Virus record (IMG/VR): IMGVR_UViG_2874920711_000010 | Length of the DNA: 19,564 bases | Origin: a virus | Taxonomy: Duplodnaviria > Heunggongvirae > Uroviricota > Caudoviricetes | Strand: one strand, 5' to 3' | Shown: positions 1 through 16,010 of the stretch, in pieces | How positions within the stretch are numbered: position 1 is the first letter of the stretch | Layout: the number at the start of each line of letters is the position of its first letter | Program-made: the position numbers and the translations under genes | The notes under the pieces: model-generated | The model's input: only the letters and a program-made list of their open reading frames with translations | Told to the model about the DNA's origin: nothing | Databases searched by the model: none

Positions 1-107
1 ATGGGCTGCGTCACCATGTTGGTGATTCAGGTGCGCACCTTTCCCCTGTGGGGTAAAAGCTCCAACCGTAACGATGTTCGTTATGGTCAACGGTTAAACC
101 GTCTCTT

Positions 108-144
108 TGTCACTGTGTGTCACTGCTTGTCACTCTCCGTCACG
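108..144. repeat. Four direct GTCAC-containing repeats with exact 10-bp phasing (TGTCACT at 108-114, 118-124, 128-134; GTCAC at 139-143), followed by the near-palindrome TGGTCATTATGACCA (152-166)
   Basis: Read directly from the sequence; helical phasing suggests protein-binding sites. No convincing coding potential in this region. Confidence 0.5.
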
Positions 145-613
145 ATTGGGCGTGGTCATTATGACCATTCCCAAAAACCCCATATTCGTGGTTTTTCTGT
201 GTCGGGGCTATTCTGCTGTTGCCGTGCTGGTGGATATTCTCCGGTATGCGGCTCCCCATATCGGCATCAGGCCCACCAGCGTGAAGCGTTTTTCATTTTT
301 CGCGGGTATAAAAAATCGATGGGGCTAGCAGTCCGGAAGAGGTCAGGGCACAGAGATTTGACCCGCCCCTCCCTGTGCATTAGCACAATAAGTGACCGAA
401 GGCGGAATTCCGCCCTCGGTACTTACATATGAGAAACGATATTTCTTCCACCGATACCCTTTATTTGGGTATCGCGAGTAAGCCCCAAAATCTGGGTGTT
501 ACTCTTACTACCCAAACTACGGGTAGTTTCCGTAGTTTCATAGTCGAGTTGCAGATCTGCAACTCGCCACCAGTTGCTAAGTGCATTTTTGCACTTTCGG
601 TAATATCAACCAG

Positions 614-997
614 TTACCGCCGTAAGTGCTCCGGCTTCCTCCACTGGTAAGTATTTTTCGCGCTCTCCCTCCGTTGTTGAGAACGGCGACGATATGCCAG
701 CAACTCAAGGACTCTTGTTCGTATGTTGCGCATATCCACGCCGTTAAGCTCAATACCGTCACGGCGCATCACCTCAGCCACCACACGCGCGTAATTTTCA
801 GCGGTGACGCTGTCCGGCTGCGTGGCCACCTGTTTGCCTGTTGCCTGACAGATTCCGGTAATACGGAGGATTACTTTCAGTAGTTCGGCGTCGGTCATGG
901 TTATGGTTTCCATAGTGATGGGGAACAATTTCTGTAATCTGCGAAGCTGGCGATCGGTCAGACTCAAATGCCTGGCAACTTCAGTCTGAGTAGCCAC
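614..997 (-). CDS. HTH-domain DNA-binding protein, 127 aa; possible terminase-small-subunit-like or packaging-redirection-like protein
   Basis: ORF with apparent GTG start preceded by GAGGTG; N-terminus EVARHLSLTDRQLRRL looks like a helix-turn-helix. Function not recognised with certainty. Confidence 0.4.
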   Translation of the reverse strand: MATQTEVARHLSLTDRQLRRLQKLFPITMETITMTDAELLKVILRITGICQATGKQVATQPDSVTAENYARVVAEVMRRDGIELNGVDMRNIRTRVLELLAYRRRSQQRRESAKNTYQWRKPEHLRR

Positions 998-1252
998 TGT
1001 TCACCTCGCCCAAAAATCTCCCCTCATGCGTTTTAAACATGCATCTTGCGAACAACTTTATGAAACGCGGCATATATGTCCGGTTTGAGTGTTTAATTTT
1101 TGCGCATGTCCGGTTCGCAGAAAGCGCATTTCTATATTTTTCAAATGGTTAACCTTCAGAGAAACCGGACATGGTTTCCGAAAAATTTTCATAAATAGTG
1201 AAATTCTGCGCCGCTCCCGCCCGTGGCAGGCCACCCCACCGGAAGGACCCGC

Positions 1253-1283
1253 AAAAAAAAGCCGGATTTCTCCGGCCTTTTCT
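1253..1283 (-). terminator. Intrinsic terminator closing the capsid operon
   Basis: A8 run (1253-1260), hairpin GCCGGATTTCTCCGGC (1261-1276), then T-rich; on the minus strand this is a hairpin followed by a U-run, directly after the stop codon at 1283-1285. Confidence 0.7.
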
Positions 1284-1696
1284 CAGATGGTTTTCAGTAT
1301 GCGATCGATTTCGCCGTCATCACCCTGATATCTGCCATCGTATGCCATGCCAGGGCTTACGGCCTGCGGGCTGTGCATGTCCATAAAGTTTTCAAAGGCT
1401 GCGGTAAGCTCCGGCGCAACCTTCGGGCGTTCCTGCTCTATGGTCATGTTCAGGATTTCCCGGGCATTATCGACGCTAATACATGGCACGTTTGCCATTG
1501 CACGTAACAGCGGCTGATAGTCGTCAGATTCATGAAGCGCCATAATCGCATCAGTGCGCGGCTTGTCCTGCTCTTCCAGTTTGTTAAGTTGATATATAGC
1601 CTCGTAGGTTGATAAACCTCTGTCCGCCATTGCCCGCGCTTCGGCTTTAAATTTACTCGCCAGCGGTAGCGCCATGATAGCTTCATTGATTGCCAT
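1283..1696 (-). CDS. Hypothetical protein, about 138 aa, last gene of the capsid operon
   Basis: ORF 1283-1759 trimmed to the Met at 1696 (MAINEAIMAL...), overlapping the upstream gene end by 14 nt and followed by the terminator. No family recognised. Confidence 0.45.
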   Translation of the reverse strand: MAINEAIMALPLASKFKAEARAMADRGLSTYEAIYQLNKLEEQDKPRTDAIMALHESDDYQPLLRAMANVPCISVDNAREILNMTIEQERPKVAPELTAAFENFMDMHSPQAVSPGMAYDGRYQGDDGEIDRILKTI

Positions 1697-2042
1697 CGTT
1701 CCCCTGCTTATCGCACCAGTGGCTGAACGGATACGCCAGAACCCGCAAAAGCGGCGCATTTTTTCGCGTCGGTGTCGACGCTCTCGGCCAGTTAACGGCG
1801 GCGATATTAAATATCCCCGTCTTGTAACACTGTGCTGATTTCTGCTTTGACGTGTCCACGGGGTACGCCGTCAGATAAACAGCCTTGCCAGATTCCTGAC
1901 CATCCCACGCCTTAAACTCGCCATTGTCCGCCAGCATCAGCGGGGTAAATTCCTGAATAACGCCAGCATCAGCGGAAAAATGTACCAGCGTCGTGGCAAC
2001 CTGCTGTGTGCCTGCATATAACTCAACATATGGAGTGCCCAT
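1683..2042 (-). CDS. Head decoration protein, lambda gpD-like, 119 aa
   Basis: Shares TPLML, AWDG, YKxGxF and VxWP motifs with lambda gpD; strong RBS GGGAGA 5 nt upstream of the ATG, immediately after the capsid gene stop. Confidence 0.6.
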   Translation of the reverse strand: MGTPYVELYAGTQQVATTLVHFSADAGVIQEFTPLMLADNGEFKAWDGQESGKAVYLTAYPVDTSKQKSAQCYKTGIFNIAAVNWPRASTPTRKNAPLLRVLAYPFSHWCDKQGNDGNQ

Positions 2043-2053
2043 AGAATCTCCCG

Positions 2054-3109
2054 TTAACCAATTTTCACAGTAACAAATTTGCGGATATCTGCCGGAACCG
2101 GCTGCGGTGCGCTGTGCGTCTGCACGTACTCAATCGCCGGATCGCCGCTCTCAATCCAGTTTTTCGGGTAGTACATGTTTTGCGTTGCGCCCGTTCTTAC
2201 CGCTTCCGGATCCATAATCGCGCCATAGGCCACCAGACCTTTATTGCTGGTGTTGCCCAGGACAAGCAAATCAGGCTCAAGGAAATATTTTTCGGTGCCG
2301 TCGCTGTCGGTGTATTTGCCGGAATAGACGATAAGGGCCAGATCACCCAGATAGCCTTTAAAGCTCACCACTTCGCCCAGGTTTTTACACGCCAGCTCTG
2401 CGGCGGATTCTGAACCACGGGAAAGATCGTACAGCTCGCGGAATTTTTTAAAGCTACGTAAGGTGCGCCATACGTCAGCGCCCATAATCATGACGTTGGC
2501 GGGGCAGCTGGCCTGTTCGGCGTATAGCTCGATGTCATCTGTCGGATCATGCGTCTCTTTATTCTGCTCAGACCATTTTTTTCCTGGCCCCTGATGGACA
2601 ATGCAGTTTGCCGGCATATTCCAGTCGATTTCATAGCGTTCTATGCCTTCGCCTTCAATGATGTTTTTTCCGGTCGTGACCGCATTCACTGCCAGCCATT
2701 CCACACGCGCTTTAATGGCGTTTATCTGGCGGCGCATGTTGCCAGTAATGAGGCGCATACGTCGCCAGGTGGGGTCGTTAAGCAGTGCCGGATCTTCTCC
2801 AGCCATGCGCATGATGGTTTTTGATGGATCGATTTCGTGTTTGGGTTTCATGTAGCCAGGGCGGATAGTGCTTGTTTCGTACCCTTTATCACGCTGAACC
2901 TGGCTACCCACCACAGGCGAACAAAACGCCGACATGGTGACTTCTTCAATGTCCAGGGTATCCAGCATGACATCTTGTGTGTTGAAGGTTGCTACTTTCG
3001 GGAAAAACAGCGTGGTAAACAGCGGACTGAATTTAAATTCCGGGATATCCCCGCGATTCAGGTACGCGAAAAGCTGGTTAGTGTTAAGTGCCGTTGCTTT
3101 GTCTGCCAT
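2054..3109 (-). CDS. Major capsid protein, lambda gpE family, 351 aa
   Basis: Collinear similarity to lambda gpE over the full length: FKFxPLFxxLFF, PGYxKPKHE, DPTDDIE, VYSGxY...LVLGNT, YPKNWxxxGDPA. Start overlaps the upstream stop as TAATG. Confidence 0.85.
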   Translation of the reverse strand: MADKATALNTNQLFAYLNRGDIPEFKFSPLFTTLFFPKVATFNTQDVMLDTLDIEEVTMSAFCSPVVGSQVQRDKGYETSTIRPGYMKPKHEIDPSKTIMRMAGEDPALLNDPTWRRMRLITGNMRRQINAIKARVEWLAVNAVTTGKNIIEGEGIERYEIDWNMPANCIVHQGPGKKWSEQNKETHDPTDDIELYAEQASCPANVMIMGADVWRTLRSFKKFRELYDLSRGSESAAELACKNLGEVVSFKGYLGDLALIVYSGKYTDSDGTEKYFLEPDLLVLGNTSNKGLVAYGAIMDPEAVRTGATQNMYYPKNWIESGDPAIEYVQTHSAPQPVPADIRKFVTVKIG

Positions 3110-3315
3110 TATTCACCCCCATGAGTCTGATTCATGCCAAGCGCCGCACGTAAATAGGCGCGTACCTGCCAGCCTGTTGACGGCTCAACCATCGCCAGCG
3201 GATCAAGTCCTGCCGCAATGCCCGCTTTTACGTTCTGCTGGTGGCGTTCCTTGAGCGCCTCCACGATATCGGGGCTTATGTAAACTGTCACCCCGCCTTT
3301 TTTCTCTTCTGTCAT
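3109..3315 (-). CDS. Small protein, 68 aa, first gene of the capsid operon, translationally coupled to the capsid gene
   Basis: ORF with a GAGG-type RBS, directly downstream of the promoter and palindrome; stop overlaps the capsid gene start. No family recognised. Confidence 0.5.
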   Translation of the reverse strand: MTEEKKGGVTVYISPDIVEALKERHQQNVKAGIAAGLDPLAMVEPSTGWQVRAYLRAALGMNQTHGGE

Positions 3316-3339
3316 AGTCAGAAATTCCTCTTCGACTTA

Positions 3340-3400
3340 AAAAATTATAACTGGATGTACATCCAGTTATAGTTATAATCATAGTTGCATTTTGTGCAAT
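3340..3400 (-). promoter_or_regulatory. Capsid operon promoter (-35 TTGCAC at 3394-3399, 16-bp spacer, -10 TATAAC at 3372-3377) with a perfect 24-bp palindrome ATAACTGGATGTACATCCAGTTAT (3347-3370) over the start-site region
   Basis: Sigma70-like hexamers on the minus strand with correct spacing; the palindrome has a CTG-N10-CAG core, which is LexA-box-like. Confidence 0.5.
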
Positions 3401-3476
3401 AGAATTGAGTTGCGTTGCAAATTATGAAATGATTTACGGCAACAGTAGTCACCATGCTGTTAACCTCGTAAGCAAA

Positions 3477-3516
3477 AGCCCGATAAGCTTCCTCCTGTAC
3501 TTATCGGGCTTTTTTT
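3477..3516 (+). terminator. Intrinsic terminator-like hairpin with a T6 run on the plus strand and no annotated plus-strand gene upstream
   Basis: Stem AGCCCGATAAG / CTTATCGGGCT with a 13-nt loop, followed by TTTTTT (3511-3516). Confidence 0.45.
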
Positions 3517-3522
3517 GGGTAC

Positions 3523-3547
3523 AAAAAGCCGGATTTTCTCCGGCCTG
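3523..3547 (-). terminator. Intrinsic terminator downstream of the ssb remnant; hairpin nearly identical to the one at 1261-1276
   Basis: AAAAA then GCCGGATTTTCTCCGGC (3528-3544); on the minus strand a hairpin plus U-run directly after the ssb stop at 3553. Confidence 0.6.
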
Positions 3548-3552
3548 TGCGT

Positions 3553-3896
3553 TCAGAACGGAATATCATCACCGTAGGGGTCATCGTCTCCCGCTGGTGG
3601 CTGATTACCCTGTGTGCCTGTGGTTTTGCGTCTGTTCCCGCCAGGGCGTGCCGCTCGGGCACTGATTACGCTGTCGGCAATAACCTGATAACCCTGCCGC
3701 GTTTCCCCGTTCTGTCCGGTCCACTGGCTGACCTGCATCGTGCCGGATACGCTGGCAACGTCGCCTGTCCGTCCTGTGCCTGGCTGCATGGCAGCGATAC
3801 CGCCATACGCGCCAGCGTCATCGGTGTGCCCTTGCTGGTCTGTTTTACCTGCGGGTCGTCCACCAACCGTCCGTAAGCTGCTATCTGTGCTGTCAT
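3553..3896 (-). pseudogene. ssb: Single-stranded DNA-binding protein (SSB) gene remnant, frame-disrupted or internally deleted
   Basis: SSB-like N-terminus (MTAQIAAYGRLVDDPQVKQ...) with RBS GGAGAGG in one frame from 3896; SSB-like OB-fold end (SQWTGQNGETRQGYQVIADSV) and acidic tail DDDPYGDDIPF in another frame ending at 3553. The middle of the OB fold appears missing. Confidence 0.5.
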
Positions 3897-4001
3897 GATT
3901 CCACCTCTCCGGTTTTAACGTAAGCGCCCCATCAGCGACGTCTTGTGAAAATTGTCCTGTCTGGCAACAATCGCGCCCATCTATATTGATGGACACGAAC
4001 G

Positions 4002-4676
4002 ATGAATTCCCAGACAACAAAAGATATTCCCTGCTTCCGTTCTTATTTGCCTGATGCCCTGCGTTTAAGATTTGAAGATAAACTGACCATCCGGGCCATC
4101 GCTCAGCGTCTGGGTCTCAGTCATTCCACAATACATACGCTTTTTCAGCGATTTCTTGCATCCGGTATCGCATGGCCATTGCCCGATTCAGTTTCATTCG
4201 CTCAACTTGACGCCATCCTTTATGCCAACAGAAAGAAGGAATTAACAGAGCCTCAAATCAGAGAAGGCTCATGGCGAAAAGAACGGCGAACCAGCTATAG
4301 CCGTGAATTTAAGGTCCGTCTGGCTAAGCAGGCGTTACAGCCTGGGGCTGTTGTTGCCCGGATCGCCAGAGAACACGATATCAATGATAACCTGCTGTTT
4401 AAATGGAAAAGCCAGTACGAGGACGGCTTACTGAGCGATGATGACATACAGGAATGCATGCCTGTCCCGGTGGCACTGACTGATACGCCGGAGCCGACCA
4501 GACCAGTTACAAATCCCTTCTGGCGTAACAAGCATGATGAGCGCCCTGAGGGGGCTCCCGGAAACGTCCCACGGTGCGAGCTGCATCTTAAATCAGGTGT
4601 GGTAAAACTGTTTGACCCTCTCACTCCGGAACTGTTACGGGCGCTAATCCGCGAAATGAAAGGGGGTATCCGATGA
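4002..4676 (+). CDS. IS66-family accessory protein TnpA (HTH), 224 aa
   Basis: First ORF inside the IS66 left end, overlapping tnpB by 4 nt. Confidence 0.7.
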   Translation: MNSQTTKDIPCFRSYLPDALRLRFEDKLTIRAIAQRLGLSHSTIHTLFQRFLASGIAWPLPDSVSFAQLDAILYANRKKELTEPQIREGSWRKERRTSYSREFKVRLAKQALQPGAVVARIAREHDINDNLLFKWKSQYEDGLLSDDDIQECMPVPVALTDTPEPTRPVTNPFWRNKHDERPEGAPGNVPRCELHLKSGVVKLFDPLTPELLRALIREMKGGIR

Positions 4677-5020
4677 TAACGCTGCCGACCGGTACCAGAA
4701 TCTGGATCATCGCTGGCATCACAGATATGCGTTGTGGCTTCAATGGCCTGGCTTCGAAGGTGCAGAACACGCTGAAAGATGACCCGTTCTCCGGGCATAT
4801 CTTCGTCTTCCGGGGCCGCAGTGGCAAAATGGTGAAAATACTGTGGGCCGATCGTGACGGGTTATGCCTGTTCGCCAAACGCCTGGAACGGGGCCGCTTC
4901 GTCTGGCCGGTGACCCGGGAAGGGAAAGTGCACCTGACGCCAGCTCAGTTATCCATGCTACTGGAGGGGATCGCGTGGCAACATCCCAAACGGACAGAAC
5001 GGCCTGGCATCCGGATATAA
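4673..5020 (+). CDS. IS66-family TnpB (Orf2), 115 aa
   Basis: Characteristic small IS66 second ORF (MITLPTG...IWIIAGITDMRCGFNGL), translationally coupled to tnpA. Confidence 0.85.
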   Translation: MITLPTGTRIWIIAGITDMRCGFNGLASKVQNTLKDDPFSGHIFVFRGRSGKMVKILWADRDGLCLFAKRLERGRFVWPVTREGKVHLTPAQLSMLLEGIAWQHPKRTERPGIRI

Positions 5021-5039
5021 CCCGTGATAAAACAAGGGA

Positions 5040-6595
5040 ATGAACAATGAACTCCCCGATGATATTGAGCTGCTTAAAGCCATGTTGCGTAAGCAACAGA
5101 GTCGGCTTCGACAGTATGCCTGTCAGGTCGCGGGCTATGAGCAGGAAATTGAACGGCTGAAAGCGCAACTCGACAGGTTGCGTCGTATGTTGTTCGGCCA
5201 GAGTTCAGAGAAAAAGCGTCATAAGCTTGAAAATCAGATCCGACAGGCAGAAAAACGACTGTCGGAACTGGAAAACCGGCTGAACACAGCCAGAAATCTT
5301 CTGGAAGATGCATCGTCAGTCACAGATTCACCTGACACCAGTCCCCGTCAGAAAACCCGATCGCCAGTAAGCCTGAATCCCCGGGAGACACATCGCCTTC
5401 TGCCTGCTGAAACCAGTTGCCCGGCCTGTGGAGGTGTTCTGAAAGAAATGGGGGAAACAATCTCAGAGCAACTGGATATCATTAATACCGCCTTTAAAGT
5501 TATCGAAACCATACGTCCCAAACTGGCCTGTAGCCGGTGTGATGTCATCGTTCAGGCACCACTTCCCCTAAACCGATCGAACGCGGTTATGCCAGTGCAG
5601 GGTTACTTGCACGGATCCTGGTCAGCAAATATATGGAACATATCCCTTTATATCGCCAGTCAGAAATATACGCGCGACAGGGCGTGGAGCTGAGCCGTAA
5701 TACCATGGTGCGCTGGGTATCAGAAATGGCAGACAAACTCCGTCCTCTGTATATAGCGCTGAATGACTATGTTCTGGAGGCAGGAAAGGTGCACGCAGAT
5801 GACACTCCGGTGAAAGTACTGGCCCCGGGGAACGGAAAGACGAAAACGGGTCGTCTGTGGGTATACGTCAGGGATGATCGTAATGCGGGTTCATCCCTGC
5901 CGGCAGCCGTCTGGTTCGCGTATTCGGCAGATCGCAAAGGAGAACATCCGCAGCTCCACCTGGCAAAGTATCAGGGCGTACTGCAGGCTGATGCCTATGC
6001 AGGTTATAACGTACTGTACGAAACGGGCCGGGTGAAGGAAGCCGGGTGCCTGGCCCACGCCCGCCGAAAAATCCATGACGAGGATGTGCGCCGTCCGACA
6101 GAAATGACTCAGGAAGCGCTCAGACGGATAGCAGAGTTATACGACATAGAAGCGGAGATACGTGGCAGTCCGGCAGAGGAACGGCTTGCAGTCAGAAAAG
6201 CCAGAAGCGTCCAGTTGATGCAGTCGTTGTACGACTGGATACAGTTGCAGAGGAAAACGCTGTCGAAACATGCGGAGATGGCGAAGGCGTTCGACTATAT
6301 CCTGAATCACTGGAATGCGCTGAACGAGTTCTGTCGTGACGGCTGGGTGGAAATAGACAACAACATCGGTGAAAACGCGTTACGATCGGTGGCGGTTGGA
6401 AGAAAAAATTATCTCTTTTTCGGCTCAGACAAGGGAGGAGAAAGTGCGGCGATCATCTACAGTCTGCTGGTCACCTGCAAACAGAACGAAGTGGAGCCGG
6501 AGGACTGGTTGCGCGAAGTGATCGAGAAGCTCAATGACTGGCCGTCGAACCAAGTGCATGAACTGCTGCCCTGGAACTTCTCGTCTGTAAAATAA
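5040..6595 (+). CDS. IS66-family transposase TnpC, split by an apparent frameshift near 5565-5568 (C4 run)
   Basis: ORFs 5040-5693 and 5633-6595 together make a TnpC of about 517 aa; the conserved [29 protein letters not shown] block is only in frame if one base is restored in the C-run. Confidence 0.75.
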
Positions 6596-6640
6596 TCCTT
6601 ACGCTACGTACTTCTCGGGACGCTTACGTATATTAAGTTA

Positions 6641-6799
6641 GGTAGACAGCTTTTTTTACTGTCTACCCACTATCTACCCTCTCTACCTGATTTTACCTGA
6701 ATCAGACAGGGAGGTAGACACGGGGTAGATAGTGGATAAAAGCACTCTACCCCGCTGAAAGCCGCGCCATTACTGGCATGAGGGCCAGCAAGGTAGACA
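6641..6799. repeat. Iteron cluster: octamer GGTAGACA/TGTCTACC at 6641-6648, 6660-6667, 6713-6720, 6792-6799, plus degenerate copies at 6671-6678 and 6724-6731
   Basis: Exact 8-mers in both orientations within about 160 bp of the 367-bp spacer between the two IS66 copies. Confidence 0.6.
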
Positions 6800-6847
6800 A
6801 GGGGAGGCACAACTCAAAACTTTTTAAACGAGGGGGTAAAAATAAAC

Positions 6848-6994
6848 ATGCACACTTCAGGAAAATTTAATAAATCACTCAAAAAACGCAGAGACAGAAC
6901 AGAACCGAAATATCGCGCGTTAGACATGACAGAGCACGCTTTAAAGGTGGCAATCAGAACGATAGACCGCCACGCGGGGGAAGGATACGCGAAG
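6848..6994 (+). CDS. 5-prime fragment (49 codons) of a small gene truncated at the IS66 copy 2 end
   Basis: ORF 6848-7090 starts after a GAGGGGG RBS; from 6995 onward its frame is IS66 sequence. Confidence 0.25.
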
Positions 6995-7025
6995 GTAAGC
7001 GCCCGAGAAGTACGTAGCGTAAGGA

Positions 7026-8580
7026 TTATTTTACAGACGAGAAGTTCCAGGGCAGCAGTTCATGCACTTGGTTCGACGGCCAGTCATTGAGCTTCTCGAT
7101 CACTTCGCGCAACCAGTCCTCCGGCTCCACTTCGTTCTGTTTGCAGGTGACCAGCAGACTGTAGATGATCGCCGCACTTTCTCCTCCCTTGTCTGAGCCG
7201 AAAAAGAGATAATTTTTTCTTCCAACCGCCACCGATCGTAACGCGTTTTCACCGATGTTGTTGTCTATTTCCACCCAGCCGTCACGACAGAACTCGTTCA
7301 GCGCATTCCAGTGATTCAGGATATAGTCGAACGCCTTCGCCATCTCCGCATGTTTCGACAGCGTTTTCCTCTGCAACTGTATCCAGTCGTACAACGACTG
7401 CATCAACTGGACGCTTCTGGCTTTTCTGACTGCAAGCCGTTCCTCTGCCGGACTGCCACGTATCTCCGCTTCTATGTCGTATAACTCTGCTATCCGTCTG
7501 AGCGCTTCCTGAGTCATTTCTGTCGGACGGCGCACATCCTCGTCATGGATTTTTCGGCGGGCGTGGGCCAGGCACCCGGCTTCCTTCACCCGGCCCGTTT
7601 CGTACAGTACGTTATAACCTGCATAGGCATCAGCCTGCAGTACGCCCTGATACTTTGCCAGGTGGAGCTGCGGATGTTCTCCTTTGCGATCTGCCGAATA
7701 CGCGAACCAGACGGCTGCCGGCAGGGATGAACCCGCATTACGATCATCCCTGACGTATACCCACAGACGACCCGTTTTCGTCTTTCCGTTCCCGGGGCCA
7801 GTACTTTCACCGGAGTGTCATCTGCGTGCACCTTTCCTGCCTCCAGAACATAGTCATTCAGCGCTATATACAGAGGACGGAGTTTGTCTGCCATTTCTGA
7901 TACCCAGCGCACCATGGTATTACGGCTCAGCTCCACGCCCTGTCGCGCGTATATTTCTGACTGGCGATATAAAGGGATATGTTCCATATATTTGCTGACC
8001 AGGATCCGTGCAAGTAACCCTGCACTGGCATAACCGCGTTCGATCGGTTTAGGGGAAGTGGTGCCTGAACGATGACATCACACCGGCTACAGGCCAGTTT
8101 GGGACGTATGGTTTCGATAACTTTAAAGGCGGTATTAATGATATCCAGTTGCTCTGAGATTGTTTCCCCCATTTCTTTCAGAACACCTCCACAGGCCGGG
8201 CAACTGGTTTCAGCAGGCAGAAGGCGATGTGTCTCCCGGGGATTCAGGCTTACTGGCGATCGGGTTTTCTGACGGGGACTGGTGTCAGGTGAATCTGTGA
8301 CTGACGATGCATCTTCCAGAAGATTTCTGGCTGTGTTCAGCCGGTTTTCCAGTTCCGACAGTCGTTTTTCTGCCTGTCGGATCTGATTTTCAAGCTTATG
8401 ACGCTTTTTCTCTGAACTCTGGCCGAACAACATACGACGCAACCTGTCGAGTTGCGCTTTCAGCCGTTCAATTTCCTGCTCATAGCCCGCGACCTGACAG
8501 GCATACTGTCGAAGCCGACTCTGTTGCTTACGCAACATGGCTTTAAGCAGCTCAATATCATCGGGGAGTTCATTGTTCAT
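7026..8580 (-). pseudogene. IS66-family transposase TnpC, copy 2, with the shared frameshift plus a second 1-bp deletion (7801-7803)
   Basis: Three ORF pieces (7927-8580, 7586-7987, 7026-7589); copy 2 reads GGCCCCGGG where copy 1 reads GGCCCCGGGG. Confidence 0.7.
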
Positions 8581-8599
8581 TCCCTTGTTTTATCACGGG

Positions 8600-8947
8600 T
8601 TATATCCGGATGCCAGGCCGTTCTGTCCGTTTGGGATGTTGCCACGCGATCCCCTCCAGTAGCATGGATAACTGAGCTGGCGTCAGGTGCACTTTCCCTT
8701 CCCGGGTCACCGGCCAGACGAAGCGGCCCCGTTCCAGGCGTTTGGCGAACAGGCATAACCCGTCACGATCGGCCCACAGTATTTTCACCATTTTGCCACT
8801 GCGGCCCCGGAAGACGAAGATATGCCCGGAGAACGGGTCATCTTTCAGCGTGTTCTGCACCTTCGAAGCCAGGCCATTGAAGCCACAACGCATATCTGTG
8901 ATGCCAGCGATGATCCAGATTCTGGTACCGGTCGGCAGCGTTATCAT
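8600..8947 (-). CDS. IS66-family TnpB, copy 2
   Basis: Protein identical to 4673-5020. Confidence 0.85.
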   Translation of the reverse strand: MITLPTGTRIWIIAGITDMRCGFNGLASKVQNTLKDDPFSGHIFVFRGRSGKMVKILWADRDGLCLFAKRLERGRFVWPVTREGKVHLTPAQLSMLLEGIAWQHPKRTERPGIRI

Positions 8948-9618
8948 CGGATACCCCCTTTCATTTCGCGGATTAGCGCCCGTAACAGTTCCGGAGTGAG
9001 AGGGTCAAACAGTTTTACCACACCTGATTTAAGATGCAGCTCGCACCGTGGGACGTTTCCGGGAGCCCCCTCAGGGCGCTCATCATGCTTGTTACGCCAG
9101 AAGGGATTTGTAACTGGTCTGGTCGGCTCCGGCGTATCAGTCAGTGCCACCGGGACAGGCATGCATTCCTGTATGTCATCATCGCTCAGTAAGCCGTCCT
9201 CGTACTGGCTTTTCCATTTAAACAGCAGGTTATCATTGATATCGTGTTCTCTGGCGATCCGGGCAACAACAGCCCCAGGCTGTAACGCCTGCTTAGCCAG
9301 ACGGACCTTAAATTCACGGCTATAGCTGGTTCGCCGTTCTTTTCGCCATGAGCCTTCTCTGATTTGAGGCTCTGTTAATTCCTTCTTTCTGTTGGCATAA
9401 AGGATGGCGTCAAGTTGAGCGAATGAAACTGAATCGGGCAATGGCCATGCGATACCGGATGCAAGAAATCGCTGAAAAAGCGTATGTATTGTGGAATGAC
9501 TGAGACCCAGACGCTGAGCGATGGCCCGGATGGTCAGTTTATCTTCAAATCTTAAACGCAGGGCATCAGGCAAATAAGAACGGAAGCAGGGAATATCTTT
9601 TGTTGTCTGGGAATTCAT
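8944..9618 (-). CDS. IS66-family TnpA, copy 2
   Basis: Protein identical to 4002-4676. Confidence 0.7.
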   Translation of the reverse strand: MNSQTTKDIPCFRSYLPDALRLRFEDKLTIRAIAQRLGLSHSTIHTLFQRFLASGIAWPLPDSVSFAQLDAILYANRKKELTEPQIREGSWRKERRTSYSREFKVRLAKQALQPGAVVARIAREHDINDNLLFKWKSQYEDGLLSDDDIQECMPVPVALTDTPEPTRPVTNPFWRNKHDERPEGAPGNVPRCELHLKSGVVKLFDPLTPELLRALIREMKGGIR

Positions 9619-9735
9619 CGTTCGTGTCCATCAATATAGATGGGCGCGATTGTTGCCAGACAGGACAATTTTCACAAGACGTCGCTGATGGGGCGCTTAC
9701 TAATATACTGAATTAAATGTATTTTCCTTTACTCA

Positions 9736-9752
9736 GGTAGACAGGGTAGACA
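9736..9752. repeat. Tandem iterons GGTAGACA-G-GGTAGACA directly downstream of the replicase gene
   Basis: Two exact copies of the same octamer found in 6641-6799, lying between the IS66 copy 2 end (9700) and the rep stop (9767). Confidence 0.6.
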
Positions 9753-9766
9753 GCAATTACAAAAAA

Positions 9767-10999
9767 TTATAAAAACGCGTCGCACTCGTCTGTTGTTATT
9801 GCGTTAGTCTGCGTTACCCCCTTAACTTTCCGCGTAATATATTCATGTCCGTAAACTTTTGCGGCAGGCTTCATAGCCTTGCCAAAGTCATTTACGTTTA
9901 GCGGTTTGCTCCTGCCTGCGTATGCCATAAACGCCAGATAGACGCGGTAAAGGCTGTTCCTGGTCGTGTACTTCACTGAATCACCACCGCCACCCATCAT
10001 CAGGCCGCGCGCTTCCTCCAGAAAATTCAGGAACTGGCAAAACTCAATAACCGGATCCGTCTGTTGCTTTATTGCCAGTGCTTCATCACCGTCACGCTGT
10101 TCCAGTAGTAAAGCCCGTGCCTTCTCAGGGTCGGTAAAGTTCGCCAGCAATCGGCGGATAATAACGGGGATTTCAGCCGCAATCTTTTCCGGTAGCTCCC
10201 TGTCTTTTTCGGCCTCACTGACGATATTGTCGAAACGGAAAATCACGCGACGACGTGCCACACCTCCGGCCCGTTCGGTGAATATCATCGGGTTGTTGTC
10301 GGTCGCCAGCACCACCGCCCTGATTACCGCCGTGAAACGCTTTTCATATTTCGGGTTAATTTCCACGGGGTCGCCGCCCGTGATTTTCTTGATGCCCGTT
10401 CCTTCGCCTGTATATTTCGGCTGGTCAGCCAGGACGATAAGACGACTCCCGACAACCTGCGCACGTCCACCAGCATCATCAAGCGATGTCATTTCAGCGC
10501 TTACCGTGTTCTGTTTCCCTGCCAGAAGGCTGGCTATGTGTGTGAATGTACTTTTACCGCTCCCGCCGTCTCCGGTGGCCTCAATAAACATCTGCCAGTC
10601 GTACCGGTTCGCCATAATCATGTAAAGCGCGGCACATATGCGCATCATCTTGCGCGGGTCTTTTCCGGCTGCGTGATCAAGCCATTTATGAAAGTTTGGC
10701 GCGTTGTCGCGGATATTCTCCCCTGGTGCTGGTGGCGTGTACTCAATGCCGTTGTGCGTGGTGATCCAGTTCTCCGGCGTGTGCGGGGAAAATTCCCCCG
10801 TTTTCAGGTTAAGCACACCATTAGTGAACGGTAGCAAATCACTGGACGGCTCGCCCATCGGGTCAGCAGTAACTTTTAACGCTTCAACGGCGTTATTAAT
10901 TGCCCGCTTGCTGAATGTGGCCCGTGTTCTGAATAAACCGCCACCATTTCGCGGCTCAGTTCCATTGTGCTGACCGGACACCATATCCCGCCGCGCCAT
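9767..10999 (-). CDS. Replicase/helicase of the P4 alpha C-terminal type (D5_N-like region plus P-loop NTPase), up to 410 aa
   Basis: LPFTNGVLNLKTGEF motif and Walker A ATGDGGSGKST; true start may be the internal Met at 10858 (after the upstream stop) or the gene may be fused to 10876-11520 by a frameshift. Confidence 0.8.
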   Translation of the reverse strand: MARRDMVSGQHNGTEPRNGGGLFRTRATFSKRAINNAVEALKVTADPMGEPSSDLLPFTNGVLNLKTGEFSPHTPENWITTHNGIEYTPPAPGENIRDNAPNFHKWLDHAAGKDPRKMMRICAALYMIMANRYDWQMFIEATGDGGSGKSTFTHIASLLAGKQNTVSAEMTSLDDAGGRAQVVGSRLIVLADQPKYTGEGTGIKKITGGDPVEINPKYEKRFTAVIRAVVLATDNNPMIFTERAGGVARRRVIFRFDNIVSEAEKDRELPEKIAAEIPVIIRRLLANFTDPEKARALLLEQRDGDEALAIKQQTDPVIEFCQFLNFLEEARGLMMGGGGDSVKYTTRNSLYRVYLAFMAYAGRSKPLNVNDFGKAMKPAAKVYGHEYITRKVKGVTQTNAITTDECDAFL

Positions 11000-11520
11000 A
11001 CGTGAACGATTTCACTTTCCGGATGCACACAAACGCCATCAAATCGACCAGCAAGCATCTGTGCGCGCTCACTGTCTGCCATCTGCGAAAGTTGCGCCTT
11101 TTGCTTTACCGGAAGCTCAATGACCAGACCATCAGAAAGATTCTGGCGTTCACGGGCCAGATATTCGCGCCAGTTCTGCACCTCCTGGCCGTGCATACCC
11201 TCAAGATAAAAATTTGCATCTTGTACACCTGCCGCCGCCAGCTTCTGACCAATCGCCTTGATCATTACAGGCTCAAGATGTCCGGCTCTGTATATGCGTG
11301 CTGATTTTCTGCCATCCGGCACAATTTGCAGATTATCCAGTTCGGATAGCTGCTGCTCTCCAAGCCACACAGGAGGCTCATTATCTCCGGCTGTACGCGC
11401 GTCATGTTCCTGCCACTGTTTCGCGTGTGCCCAGGCATCACTACCCGCAAAGATAATTACCTCTGTGTCTTTGTGTTTTATTCCGCGTGGCTGTTTTTTT
11501 ACGTTCGGTGCCAGTTTCAT
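10876..11520 (-). CDS. Primase-like or replication-associated protein, 214 aa, upstream partner of the replicase
   Basis: ORF overlaps the replicase ORF by 124 nt in another frame; domain not recognised with certainty. Confidence 0.5.
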   Translation of the reverse strand: MKLAPNVKKQPRGIKHKDTEVIIFAGSDAWAHAKQWQEHDARTAGDNEPPVWLGEQQLSELDNLQIVPDGRKSARIYRAGHLEPVMIKAIGQKLAAAGVQDANFYLEGMHGQEVQNWREYLARERQNLSDGLVIELPVKQKAQLSQMADSERAQMLAGRFDGVCVHPESEIVHVWRGGIWCPVSTMELSREMVAVYSEHGPHSASGQLITPLKR

Positions 11521-11801
11521 TTTTTACCCCTGAATACGTTAAGCATCTTTTTTATTTCCTGAATATTGGCACGTGCTTTCTCCCTGCTGGTGGGCACGTT
11601 ACGCGGTACGGCCTGCACAAGAGAAAAATCACGGTCGAACTGATAAACAGGCATCACGCAATCATATTCGTAGCCTTCACGACGGTAGGTTACGCGCCGT
11701 TCCTCCACGCCCTTAATTATTACCGTGCTGCCGTACTTATCGCGGTAAATATTGAGGTAGCCTGAGTTTAACGGACACTCCTTCCTGAAATAGAATGGCA
11801 T
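11517..11801 (-). CDS. Small hypothetical protein coupled to the primase gene (ATGA overlap); its first codons lie inside the IS3-family element
   Basis: Stop overlaps the primase start at 11517-11520; the annotated start at 11801 is beyond the inferred IS left end (about 11763-11779), so the native N-terminus and promoter are probably lost. Confidence 0.35.
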   Translation of the reverse strand: MPFYFRKECPLNSGYLNIYRDKYGSTVIIKGVEERRVTYRREGYEYDCVMPVYQFDRDFSLVQAVPRNVPTSREKARANIQEIKKMLNVFRGKK

Positions 11802-11816
11802 CAGAAGGAGCTAATA

Positions 11817-12079
11817 ATGAGCAGAAAAACCCAACGTTACTCTAAAGAGTTCAAAGCCGAAGCTGTCAGAACGGTTCTTGAAAATCAACTTTCGATCAGT
11901 GAAGGCGCTTCCCGATTATCCCTTCCTGAAGGCACTTTAGGACAATGGGTTACCGCCGCCAGAAAAGGACTCGGTACTCCTGGTTCCCGCACGGTGGCTG
12001 AACTGGAATCTGAAATTCTGCAACTGCGTAAGGCGTTAAATGAAGCTCGCCTTGAGCGAGATATATTAAAAAAAGCAAC
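11817..12079 (+). CDS. IS3-family OrfA (HTH), interrupted near its 3-prime end by IS30; the last codons resume at 13302
   Basis: Removing IS30 and one AC copy restores ...DILKKATAYFAQESLKNTR and a continuous -1 frame into OrfB. Confidence 0.7.
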
Positions 12080-13299
12080 TGTAGATTCAATTGGTCAACG
12101 CAACAGTTATGTGAAAACATGGGGTTGCGGAGGTTTTTTGAATGAGACGAACATTTACAGCAGAGGAAAAAGCCTCTGTTTTTGAACTATGGAAGAACGG
12201 AACAGGCTTCAGTGAAATAGCGAATATCCTGGGTTCAAAACCCGGAACGATCTTCACTATGTTAAGGGATACTGGCGGCATAAAACCCCATGAGCGTAAG
12301 CGGGCTGTAGCTCACCTGACACTGTCTGAGCGCGAGGAGATACGAGCTGGTTTGTCAGCCAAAATGAGCATTCGTGCGATAGCTACTGCGCTGAATCGCA
12401 GTCCTTCGACGATCTCACGTGAAGTTCAGCGTAATCGGGCAGACGCTATTACAAAGCTGTTGATGCTAATAACCGAGCCAACAGAATGGCGAAAAGGCCA
12501 AAACCGTGCTTACTGGATCAAAATTTACCATTGCGAAAGCTTGTTCTGGAAAAGCTGGAGATGAAATGGTCTCCAGAGCAAATATCAGGATGGTTAAGGC
12601 GAACAAAACCACGTCAAAAAACGCTGCGAATATCACCTGAGACAATTTATAAAACGCTGTACTTTCGTAGCCGTGAAGCGCTACACCACCTGAATATACA
12701 GCATCTGCGACGGTCGCATAGCCTTCGCCATGGCAGGCGTCATACCCGCAAAGGCGAAAGAGGTACGATTAACATAGTGAACGGAACACCAATTCACGAA
12801 CGTTCCCGAAATATCGATAACAGACGCTCTCTGGGGCATTGGGAGGGCGATTTAGTCTCAGGTACAAAAAACTCTCATATAGCCACACTTGTAGACCGAA
12901 AATCACGTTATACGATCATCCTTAGACTCAGGGGCAAAGATTCTGTCTCAGTAAATCAGGCTCTTACCGACAAATTCCTGAGTTTACCGTCAGAACTCAG
13001 AAAATCACTGACATGGGACAGAGGAATGGAACTGGCCAGACATCTAGAATTTACTGTCAGCACCGGCGTTAAAGTTTACTTCTGCGATCCTCAGAGTCCT
13101 TGGCAGCGGGGAACAAATGAGAACACAAATGGGCTAATTCGGCAGTACTTTCCTAAAAAGACATGTCTTGCCCAATATACTCAACATGAACTAGATCTGG
13201 TTGCTGCTCAGCTAAACAACAGACCGAGAAAGACACTGAAGTTCAAAACACCGAAAGAGATAATTGAAAGGGGTGTTGCATTGACAGATTGAATCTACA
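12080..13299 (+). mobile_element. IS30 (1220 bp here, canonical 1221 bp) nested inside the IS3-family element, with 2-bp target duplication AC
   Basis: Left end TGTAGATTCAATTGGTCAACGCAACAG at 12080, right end ...CAGATTGAATCTACA at 13299, AC at 12078-12079 and 13300-13301. Confidence 0.85.
12142..13292 (+). CDS. insI: IS30 transposase, split by a 1-bp deletion in a G-run at about 12436-12439
   Basis: ORFs 12142-12564 and 12486-13292 together give the roughly 383-aa IS30 transposase; the window reads CGGGCAGACGC where an intact frame requires one more G. Confidence 0.8.
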
Positions 13300-13376
13300 A
13301 CAGCGTATTTTGCACAGGAGTCGCTGAAAAATACGCGTTAATCGAACAATGGCGACAACAATTTCCCATTGAAGCG

Positions 13377-14195
13377 ATGTGTCAGGTATTTGGTGTATCC
13401 AGGAGCGGTTATTACAACTGGGTACAGCATGAACCCTCAGACAGAAAACAAAGTGATGAGCGGCTAAAACTGGAGATTAAGGTGGCCCATATCCGCACTC
13501 GCGAAACATATGGAACCCGGCGGCTCCAGACGGAGCTGGCAGAGAATGGCATCATCGTTGGACGTGACCGACTGGCACGTCTTCGTAAGGAGCTAAGGCT
13601 ACGCTGTAAGCAGAAACGCAAGTTCAGAGCGACTACGAACCCGAACCACAATCTGCCAGTTGCGCCAAATCTGCTGAACCAGACGTTCGCTCCTACAGCA
13701 CCAAATCAGGTCTGGGTGGCGGACCTGACGTATGTTGCCACACAGGAGGGATGGTTGTACCTCGCTGGCATCAAAGATGTTTATACGTGCGAAATTGTCG
13801 GCTACGCCATGGGAGAGCGCATGACAAAAGAGCTGACAGGTAAAGCCCTGTTTATGGCGCTCAGGAGCCAGCGCCCACCTGCCGGGCTAATCCACCACTC
13901 TGATCGAGGTTCACAGTACTGCGCATACGATTACCGGGTCATACAGGAGCAGTTTGGTCTGAAAACATCAATGTCGCGTAAAGGTAACAGTTACGACAAC
14001 GCTCCGATGGAAAGCTTCTGGGGAACGCTGAAAAATGAGAGCCTGAGCCACTATCGTTTTAATAACCGGGATGAAGCCATCTCAGTAATACGGGAATACA
14101 TTGAGATTTTCTACAATCGTCAGCGTCGTCACTCTCGTCTGGGGAATATCTCCCCGGCAGCCTTCAGGGAAAAATATCATCAGATGGCTGCTTAA
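13377..14195 (+). CDS. IS3-family OrfB (DDE transposase catalytic domain)
   Basis: DDE-type motifs (WVADLTY, HHSDRGSQY, YDNAPMESFW); in the intact element it is expressed as an OrfAB fusion by -1 frameshifting, the -1 frame being open from about 13302. Confidence 0.8.
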   Translation: MCQVFGVSRSGYYNWVQHEPSDRKQSDERLKLEIKVAHIRTRETYGTRRLQTELAENGIIVGRDRLARLRKELRLRCKQKRKFRATTNPNHNLPVAPNLLNQTFAPTAPNQVWVADLTYVATQEGWLYLAGIKDVYTCEIVGYAMGERMTKELTGKALFMALRSQRPPAGLIHHSDRGSQYCAYDYRVIQEQFGLKTSMSRKGNSYDNAPMESFWGTLKNESLSHYRFNNRDEAISVIREYIEIFYNRQRRHSRLGNISPAAFREKYHQMAA

Positions 14196-14310
14196 AAAAA
14201 GAACAAATGGTAGTGTCCGCTATTGCCAGTACACCTCATATCCCCGCGCATGAATTTAGTGCGAGTTTTGCCGCTGGCAGTTAAGCCAGGATATTTAAGT
14301 TTCATTATTT

Positions 14311-14544
14311 TTATTCTCCGGTGTGGGGCGCTTTATACTGGTCGTGTAATGTCTCTATTTCCTGCAACTCATTTATTACAGGCTCAAGAAGCGTTATTAA
14401 TGCCGTGACAATCCTTGATTTCTGTTTATCACGCTCATTATCGCCAAATGTTTCCAGACACATTTGCAATATTTCCAACATATTTTCACTGTGAGAAAGT
14501 GCAAGAAATGCGCGGTCTGTTATTTCAATGTAAATATCACGCAT
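14311..14544 (-). CDS. Small hypothetical protein, 77 aa, in an AT-rich pocket between the IS3 and IS110 elements
   Basis: ORF only; no clear RBS, and its upstream region is IS110-family sequence. Confidence 0.3.
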   Translation of the reverse strand: MRDIYIEITDRAFLALSHSENMLEILQMCLETFGDNERDKQKSRIVTALITLLEPVINELQEIETLHDQYKAPHTGE

Positions 14545-14549
14545 AACCC

Positions 14550-16010
14550 CGTTACTTTATTCGTACCCCTTATAATGGGGTGTTAGCCAGCCAGACCCGG
14601 CATGATTACTGCCCCCAGTCGTCCATGATCCGGGGGTGATGTCACCGGGTCTGGTGGGGCGCTGGTAACCGCTAATAGGGTCAGGTCAGGCACTTTTGCC
14701 GGGACCGTCTGTAACGTGGATGCCGGTACCTGCTCCCGTGGTTATCTGGTTAACCCATATACAAGGGAGACAGAATGACCGAATCCAGCGATTACGAATC
14801 CGTCCAGGTCTTTATCGGCGTTGATGTCGGTAAAGATACGCATCACGCTGTTGCCATTAATCGTTCAGGTAAACGCCTGTTCGATAAAGCATTACCCAAC
14901 GACGAAAACAAACTCAGGTCGCTAATATCTGACCTGAAACAACATGGTCAGATACTGCTGGTTGTTGATCAGCCAGCTACCATCGGTGCGTTACCTGTCG
15001 CCGTTGCCCGCTCAGAAGGAGTCCTTGTCGGATATCTCCCTGGACTGGCCATGCACCGCATAGCCGACTTACACGCCGGTGAAGCTAAAACTGATGCTCG
15101 TGACGCTGCCATCATTGCCGAAGCTGCCCGTACCCTGCCTCACGCGCTACGCACGCTGAAACTGGCTGACGAGCAAATCGCCGAACTCTCCATGCTCTGC
15201 GGCTTCGATGATGATCTTGCCGCACAGACAACGCAGGCCAGCAACCGTATCCGCGGCCTTCTGACCCAGATACATCCGGCACTGGAGCGCGTTCTCGGTC
15301 CGAGACTTGAGCACCCGGCGGTACTCGATCTTCTCCAGCGATATCCCTCACCAGAAAAACTCGCTTCGCTGGGTGAGAAGAAGCTGGCAGCCCAGCTCTG
15401 CAAACTTGCGCCTCGTCTGGGTAAACGCCTTGCAGCAGACATAGCTCAGGCACTGGCCGAACAAACCGTCGTCGTTCCCGGCACGAATGCCGCTGCCGTA
15501 GTACTGCCACGTCTGGCACTCCAACTCATCACGCTGCGTAAGCAAAGAGACGAGGTGGCGCTTGAGGTAGAACAGCGAGTTCTTGCTCACCCTCTTTACC
15601 CGGTCCTGACCAGTATGCCCGGAGTCGGTGTCAGGACCGCAGCCAGACTCCTCACCGAGGTCGCCTGCCGCGCCTTCGCCTCTGCCGCACATCTCGCTGC
15701 TTATGCTGGCCTTGCGCCGGTAACTCGGCGATCCGGCTCGTCAATACGCGGTGAGCATCCCTCGCGACGGGGTAATAAAGCTCTCAAACGGGCGTTGTTC
15801 CTGTCGGCCTTCGCCGCGCTCAGGGATCCGCTCTCCAGGGCTTACTACACCCGCAAAATGAGTCAGGGAAAACGACACAATCAGGCGCTTATCGCCCTGG
15901 CGAGACGACGCTGCGACGTTCTGTTCGCCATGATGCGCGACGGGACTTTTTATACCCCGCAGGGGTCATAACATGCTTGACAACTTAATAGGGCACCCCC
16001 ATTTTCACAA
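14550..16010 (+). mobile_element. IS110-family insertion sequence (boundaries approximate)
   Basis: Single 398-aa transposase with a GC-rich leader of about 220 bp; sharp base-composition change near 14545. Confidence 0.6.
14775..15971 (+). CDS. IS110-family transposase, 398 aa
   Basis: N-terminal FIGVDVGKDTHHAV RuvC-like motif; RBS AAGGGAGA upstream. Confidence 0.85.
   Translation: MTESSDYESVQVFIGVDVGKDTHHAVAINRSGKRLFDKALPNDENKLRSLISDLKQHGQILLVVDQPATIGALPVAVARSEGVLVGYLPGLAMHRIADLHAGEAKTDARDAAIIAEAARTLPHALRTLKLADEQIAELSMLCGFDDDLAAQTTQASNRIRGLLTQIHPALERVLGPRLEHPAVLDLLQRYPSPEKLASLGEKKLAAQLCKLAPRLGKRLAADIAQALAEQTVVVPGTNAAAVVLPRLALQLITLRKQRDEVALEVEQRVLAHPLYPVLTSMPGVGVRTAARLLTEVACRAFASAAHLAAYAGLAPVTRRSGSSIRGEHPSRRGNKALKRALFLSAFAALRDPLSRAYYTRKMSQGKRHNQALIALARRRCDVLFAMMRDGTFYTPQGS

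Follow-up and report, generated by a model that had tools for sequence, protein, structure and literature searches.

Two inverted copies of the IS66-family element ISSfl3 in a decayed phage-satellite-type island, and their single-copy precursor

Results

The 19,564-nt stretch of DNA analyzed here (the window, to which all coordinates refer) carries a decayed phage-satellite-type island in which two copies of ISSfl3, an insertion sequence (IS) of the IS66 family, stand in inverted orientation on either side of a short piece of island DNA. Its source record is GenBank CP026824.1 (locus L002), which is 100% identical to the window and thus the window's own record. The island is made up of genes for an integrase, AlpA, an Ash-like regulator and a primase, an iteron origin, ssb, and capsid genes of the lambda E/D type; its Pfam matches comprise Phage_integrase, Phage_AlpA, D5_N/DUF5906/Pox_D5 and Phage_ASH. 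Island boundaries are visible in the related loci L001 and L004, and the island is integrated at a chromosomal attachment (att) site. The features of the locus are collected in Table 1.

Table 1. Features of the ISSfl3 locus and of the adjoining island genes in the window
Feature	Position	Strand	Description
ssb remnant	3666..3896	-	open reading frame (ORF) of 76 amino acids (aa); the intact L006 protein matches phrog_44 SSB
Left flank GTTTTAAC	3912..3919		old junction, where the 105-bp deletion in the 92-aa gene has its left border
ISSfl3 copy 1 (IS66 family)	3920..6627	+	2708 bp; GTAAGCG...CGCTTAC; assigned by Pfam, identity to RefSeq ISSfl3 and alignment to L012
tnpA	4002-4676	+	Pfam HTH_Tnp_1
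tnpB	4673-5020	+	Pfam TnpB_IS66
tnpC, in pieces	5040-5693 and 5633-6595	+	Pfam zf-IS66, DDE_Tnp_IS66
GTATATTA	6628..6635		target-duplication copy in inverted orientation; newly joined to the right end (IRR) of copy 1
Inverted 359-bp island segment	6636..6994	-	seven of nine origin iterons, upstream region, start of the 92-aa gene
ACGCGAAG	6987..6994		inner flank of copy 2; reverse complement CTTCGCGT
ISSfl3 copy 2	6995..9700	-	2706 bp; same 44-bp tnpC deletion; inverted relative to copy 1
TAATATAC	9701..9708		second target-duplication copy; newly joined to the left end (IRL) of copy 2
Rest of the origin	9709..9766		two iterons (9736-9752) and an AT-rich stretch; adjoins the 3' end of the primase gene
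Primase/helicase	9767..11520	-	D5_N, DUF5906, Pox_D5; 584 aa in relatives; split at 10920

Relatives of the island were gathered by looking up exact matches to the major capsid protein of the window, which yielded 10 loci. Five loci from this look-up, all at the same chromosomal site, are free of IS66 (L003, L006, L008, L010, and L011); outside the origin stretch, the shared segments of the island are more than 99% identical, and across it the identity is about 96-97%. Two sister assemblies, L007 (PSSP01000001.1) and L009 (AKNA01000064.1), possess a single ISSfl3 copy and share the other IS insertions of the window, whose lineage is known from three assemblies only. For the alignment of the ancestral order we used the island of E. 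coli HM670 (L001; about 90-97% identity to the window), and Megablast searches were conducted against a database of 5,426 complete E. coli genomes.

An earlier reading of the window, made from its letters alone (the original prediction), had described two inverted IS66 copies, a 367-bp spacer and a set of flanking octamers. A repeat finder and direct reading of the sequence returned exactly this arrangement, with a long inverted repeat in two arm pairs (3920-5829 with 7791-9700, and 5824-6619 with 7002-7797), a spacer at 6628-6994 and the four octamers given in Table 1. GTATATTA is the exact reverse complement of TAATATAC; for one named pair of octamers, such a match arises by chance with a probability of 1/65,536. 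The copies are not the perfect inverted repeat that had been proposed, since their pairwise alignment contains two differences in the assembled sequence. One is a run-length difference, GGGG at 5826-5829 in copy 1 and GGG in copy 2; the other is found near the right end, eight bases from the terminus, where GGGACGCTTAC in copy 1 corresponds to GGGCGCTTAC in copy 2 (GGGA versus GGG-). At this position of the right terminal repeat (window positions 6620 and 7002), the single-copy precursor described below and all other copies have GGGGCGCTTAC; the two window copies deviate from the precursor at one and the same base, in what may be a real or a technical difference.

Copy 1 displays the three-gene order tnpA-tnpB-tnpC of IS66 elements, and its identity to loci annotated as 'IS66-like element ISSfl3 family transposase' in the E. 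coli genomes amounts to 99.5-99.8%. The terminal inverted repeats begin at 3920 with GTAAGCGCCCC... and end with ...CGCTTAC at 6627, and the same ends recur in inverted form at 6995 and 9700. In this level of identity, in their gene order and in their GTAAGCG termini the window copies are like the ISSfl3 elements of RefSeq E. coli/enteroinvasive E. coli genomes, which elsewhere are bordered by 8-bp duplications: direct duplications of this length flank the copies at L012 (GGGAAGTC) and L024 (GGCTTATA), while that at L021 measures 9 bp. The window copies differ from RefSeq ISSfl3 in length (2706-2708 bp versus 2754 bp) through a 44-bp deletion and 1-nt run-length differences. Alignment to the intact reference copy at L012 (2754 bp; TnpC of 533 aa) revealed that the 44-bp deletion shifts the reading frame of tnpC and is common to both window copies and to the single copies of L007 and L009. 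It lies after position 5377 and has the 8-bp direct repeat TCCCCGGG at its borders. Neither window copy encodes an intact 533-aa TnpC; in its place are ORFs of 217+320 aa or 217+133+187 aa.

To place the spacer in its ancestral context, the reverse complement of 6636-6994 was joined to the sequence from 9701 onward. This construct aligned as one colinear piece, at about 97% identity and with full coverage, in 362 E. coli genomes, and it is colinear in all close relatives as well. In L001, where the island lies between phoQ and roxA, capsid and decoration genes, ssb, the 92-aa gene, a non-coding stretch, the primase gene and the integrase gene are found, and the gene order of the IS-free loci is capsid, ssb, 92-aa gene, iteron origin and primase, contiguous and with the octamer present once. 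All relatives carry the octamer as a single copy, in the form TAATGTAC or, in L001, TAATGCAC. These data bear out two claims of the original prediction: 359 bp have been inverted relative to the ancestral order, as postulated for an intramolecular inversion, and GTATATTA and TAATATAC are the two parts of a split 8-bp target duplication.

The one-copy precursor of this structure is represented by L007 and L009. In both, a single ISSfl3 copy precedes a spacer that has kept its native orientation; next come one octamer, TAATGTAC, and the primase gene. Their left junction (...CCGGTTTTAAC abutting GTAAGCG) is identical to that of the window, as is the junction of the IRR with CTTCGCGT (also written as IRR abutting CTTCGCGTATCC), which in the window is retained by the IRR of copy 2; the two old junctions of the precursor have thus been kept, one per copy. 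Both window octamers correspond to TAATATAC, whereas the relatives, L007 and L009 included, carry a G at the fifth position. Since the two octamers share a derived G-to-A change that is absent from every relative, they are duplicates of one target that had already mutated. It follows that the one-copy state is ancestral and cannot be derived from the two-copy state. A further lineage-specific change is the loss of one 9-bp iteron unit in the window spacer. Read together, these findings give the order of events: from an IS-free island, via an island with one ISSfl3 copy and an adjacent 105-bp deletion, to the present locus, in which a second, inverted copy sits at the octamer and 359 bp are inverted.

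Two other origins for the paired copies were considered and rejected. A composite transposon inserted as a unit does not fit the differing outer flanks, GTTTTAAC and TAATATAC, and a spacer that consists of native island DNA; a palindrome formed by template switching is at odds with the exact 8-bp duplication at the IS termini, which points to a transposase.

The other pair of flanks, GTTTTAAC and ACGCGAAG, does not match, and this mismatch had led to the proposal of either an adjacent deletion or a foreign junction on the ssb side. The deletion is what we found. IS-free relatives run on from GTTTTAAC into GTTGATGG..., and in five of them exactly 105 bp (GTTGATGG...GGATGTTC) separate GTTTTAAC from CTTCGCGT. 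These 105 bp belong to the 92-aa gene upstream of ssb; they are absent from the window and are already missing in L007 and L009. Since these single-copy loci already possess the left junction, it predates the duplication of the element, and it is an old IS-adjacent deletion within the island. The alternative, in which horizontal transfer or recombination mediated by an IS brought the ssb-capsid module beside the satellite core, was suggested by the non-matching flanks and is refuted by the relatives: both sides of the junction are contiguous, save for the 105 bp, in the five close relatives and in L001, and the order capsid-ssb-origin-primase is the norm among relatives. We regard a foreign joint as virtually excluded. 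The linkage of ssb and the capsid genes to the satellite core, which the original prediction had considered potentially secondary, is by this comparison native, as capsid genes, ssb, 92-aa gene, iterons and primase gene are contiguous in the IS-free loci. The comparison with IS66-free strains that had been recommended therefore established the native order and the inversion and removed the foreign joint.

Of the 92-aa gene, the first 49 codons remain (6848-6994) and are now read on the plus strand into copy 2. An exact look-up of the resulting fusion ORF (6848-7090) returned no record. The intact 92-aa gene and an intact 136-aa SSB are present in L003, L006, L008, L010, and L011. Compared with this SSB of the relatives, ssb of the window has lost 67 internal bp between direct repeats of 10 bp (AACGTCGCCT, at about 3757-3766), a loss that it shares with L007; a look-up of the remnant identified CP026824.1 and PSSP01000001.1 only. 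In L004 and L005, the ssb region has been removed by another deletion.

The two-copy structure as a whole occurs in none of the complete E. coli genomes, and neither the left junction nor the junction between the IRR and the octamer is found in any of them. When one genome per species was scanned, the new junction and the old left junction gave 0 matches each. Literature searches for the accession numbers retrieved no mention.

The quality of the window's assembly bears on how this structure is to be read. Compared with L007 and L009, the unique flanks of the window contain nine indels, all of them 1-nt deletions in G/C runs and always on the side of the window, and two further 1-nt run deletions are common to all three ISSfl3 copies of the window's assembly (the sites are 42, 919, 1219, 1700, 1785, 5342, 5564, 10920, 12436, 14677, and 14734). 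This pattern looks like systematic under-calling of homopolymers. The run-length differences between copy 1 and copy 2 are probably technical, and so, probably, are the frameshifts in the primase gene (at 10920, where a C run is one nucleotide short) and in the IS30 transposase gene (12436); with under-calling, the altered decoration gene (1700, 1785) would be an artefact and not a pseudogene. Given the many 1-nt deletions in G/C runs, frameshifts in the window record should not be taken as evidence for pseudogenes.

An assembler might also have created a false inverted duplication from one real ISSfl3 copy, and the two copies are indeed known from only one assembly (CP026824.1), the very one with the systematic homopolymer errors. 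The locus, however, is no simple palindrome. It contains novel junctions of the IRR with GTATATTA and of the IRL with TAATATAC that come with an exact 8-bp duplication, which is not what assemblers produce; the native junction between spacer, octamer and downstream DNA is absent from the assembly; and the lineage-specific G-to-A change is present in both octamers, next to the 9-bp iteron loss in the spacer. We therefore consider an artefact unlikely, and give it very little weight.

Divergence from L007 is distributed unevenly. No substitutions were found in the 3.9-kb left flank (1-3919) relative to L007, and none relative to L009, while the 5.1-kb right flank (9709-14800) contains eight substitutions relative to L007, four of them in unique DNA; the octamer change and the 9-bp iteron loss in the spacer come in addition. 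Recombination or gene conversion is a possible cause of this difference between the two sides.

The 44-bp-deleted variant of ISSfl3 is not restricted to the locus studied here. A third copy of it resides in the same genome at L015, and another genome (CP027027.1) carries it at L024, L026, and L027, at L024 with its own 8-bp duplication; the copies at L025, L021, and L012 are intact, that at L021 being a copy with the 533-aa TnpC in the assembly of a sister strain. The variant is either a defective derivative mobilized in trans or the product of a recurrent slippage deletion; recurrence is conceivable because of the 8-bp direct repeat that bounds the deletion. We had viewed the shared deletion as proof that copy 2 descends from copy 1, but dropped this argument, as the variant is multi-copy and the deletion could recur. 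In CP027027.1, the octamer ATATGGAC forms the left flank of the intact copy at L025 (about 0.65 Mb) and the right flank of the inverted, 44-bp-deleted copy at L026 (about 1.37 Mb), and the remaining two flanks do not match; this second case of a split target duplication implies an inversion of roughly 0.7 Mb.

The inverted segment contains most of the iterons of the island's putative replication origin. The iteron motif GGTAGANA occurs nine times in the window, exclusively at 6641-6799 or 9736-9752. Natively, a stretch of 77% A+T, flanked by 10 iterons and containing the target octamer, lies directly 3' of the primase gene. Iterons placed beside the gene for the replication initiator are the layout of satellite replication origins, such as those of staphylococcal pathogenicity islands and phage-inducible chromosomal islands (SaPI/PICI ori) and of P4 (ori/crr). 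By analogy, the native arrangement, with its about 10 short iterons around an AT-rich stretch 3' of a primase/helicase gene, may be an origin of this type; it is unlike the SaPI/PICI and P4 origins in that the array of the window is split by the IS. Two iterons have stayed beside the primase gene, and seven are now located, inverted, 2.7 kb away. With the array divided in this manner, autonomous replication of the island would hardly be possible any more, and the 92-aa gene is destroyed.

Further observations concern the remaining parts of the island. The region 1283-3315 encodes a lambda E-like major capsid protein and a D-like decoration protein, and a protein of 137-158 aa from the same region resembles head-maturation proteases in their C-terminal (scaffold-like) part only. 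From the flanking autotransporter gene to the integrase gene, there is neither a portal nor a terminase gene. Related islands are present in hundreds of E. coli genomes and occupy more than one attachment site. An IS3-family element (11753-14238) contains a nested IS30 (12080-13299), and the same IS3/IS30 composite recurs within the genome's third ISSfl3 copy (L015, 3113-5599). There, IS30 occupies the same position (2-bp flank AC) in the opposite orientation relative to the window; it was either inverted in place or inserted twice at the same hotspot. In the regulatory part of the island, an IS110-family element (14546-15996; ORF 14775-15971) is present. The IS66-free loci L003 and L006 contain it too; in L004, L005, and L008, part of it has been deleted.

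Discussion

How did the second ISSfl3 copy arise? We lean towards a single step, an intramolecular replicative transposition in trans, as the source of both the second inverted copy and the inversion. The starting point would be one resident ISSfl3 in the 92-aa gene upstream of ssb, with the 105 bp beside it already gone. Both 3' ends of this element would attack, on opposite strands, the nearby octamer TAATATAC, situated 359 bp from the element in the AT-rich middle of the island's origin, and replication through the IS would then leave two inverted copies bracketing an inverted segment. Since both copies and the sister single copy share the frameshifting 44-bp tnpC deletion, the transposase was probably provided in trans; its source would be an intact ISSfl3 elsewhere in the genome. 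The loss of the 105 bp would most simply represent an earlier cis (deletion) outcome of the same pathway. More guardedly, as a reading that could well be right, we suggest that ISSfl3, and with it the IS66 family, transposes replicatively via a Shapiro-type intermediate, and that the locus preserves a cis deletion of 105 bp followed by an inversion-duplication in trans in which a defective copy was mobilized.

With L for the left flank, S for the 359-bp segment, X for the octamer, D for the DNA beyond it and a prime for inverted orientation, the geometry of the locus is L-[IRL>IRR]-X'-S'-[IRR<IRL]-X-D; of its junctions, L-IRL and IRR-S are old and have been retained, and IRR-X' and IRL-X are new. 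Intramolecular transposition in trans of IS26 and Tn4401 gives exactly such a geometry, and their cis pathway generates adjacent deletions and an element without a direct target duplication (He et al., 2015, mBio; PMC4471558). The ISSfl3 locus is like the IS26/Tn4401 products in its inverted copies with inverted intervening DNA, in the single 8-bp target copy next to each element, the two being mutually inverted, in having an identifiable one-copy precursor, and in the companion cis outcome at the same copy, an adjacent deletion with no direct duplication. It is unlike them in other respects: the IS66 element has three ORFs and a TnpC transposase of the DDE type, the replicative pathway has not been demonstrated for the IS66 family, the target in the window is only 359 bp away, and the transposase gene is frameshifted by the 44-bp deletion. 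We favor the single step because it explains both the 105-bp and the 359-bp rearrangement without two improbable close-range insertions.

The same final structure can be derived from the junctions in two steps. Another ISSfl3 copy, stemming from the neighbouring copy or from another locus and perhaps delivered as a copy-out/paste-in circle, would insert in inverted orientation at TAATATAC, with a normal direct 8-bp duplication at first, and RecA-dependent recombination would then flip the 367-bp segment; the 105 bp would have been lost through a nearby insertion in direct orientation and recombination, or through an unrelated deletion. This is a possible explanation, which we hold as a tentative one. 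IS-mediated recombination is common in IS-rich genomes of the Shigella type, homologous inversion between inverted IS copies in such genomes leaves the same arrangement of flanks, and repeats of 2.7 kb are good substrates for it. The defective variant is multi-copy, its copy at L024 has a direct duplication of its own, the GGG run is common to copy 2 and the third copy, and the split octamer of L025 and L026, about 0.7 Mb apart in CP027027.1, resembles the outcome of recombination between independent copies. Homologous inversion by itself, in contrast, leaves the origin of the second copy unexplained and needs a prior independent insertion near the resident copy; this insertion must land within 359 bp of it in a genome of roughly 5 Mb, and a second such coincidence is needed for the 105-bp deletion. 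An unflipped two-copy form was not found, yet only three assemblies of the lineage exist.

Several points weigh against the one-step transposition that we favor. Insertion followed by a homologous flip yields an identical product, and since flipping between 2.7-kb repeats is expected to be frequent, the present orientation does not discriminate between the routes. How elements of the IS66 family transpose has not been established and is insufficiently characterized (PMC12898284); a mechanistic study of IS66 transposition was not found in the literature searched, and a replicative mode for the family is an assumption on our part. Because the 44-bp-deleted variant is present elsewhere (L015; L024, L026, and L027), the donor need not have been the neighbouring copy. 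The GGG run of copy 2 equals that of the third copy, and the GGGG run of copy 1 equals that of the precursor, a run of the kind that the window's assembly miscalls. Finally, the two-copy structure rests on the single assembly CP026824.1.

Two inverted repeats of 2.7 kb that lie 367 bp apart may flip in orientation, and assemblies of the region may go wrong; the instability hotspot that had been foreseen in the pair is plausible. The rearrangement itself is of an ordinary, textbook kind; what is new is that it involves a member of the IS66 family with a natural precursor. Seen side by side, the one-copy precursor and its two-copy product show an IS66-family element in nature before and after the event, and they are of modest value as natural evidence on IS66 transposition. 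For the island, whose gene order is native, the insertion sequences brought a stepwise inactivation in which the origin was split and the 92-aa gene and ssb were destroyed, as is typical of genome decay in an IS-rich lineage of the Shigella type.

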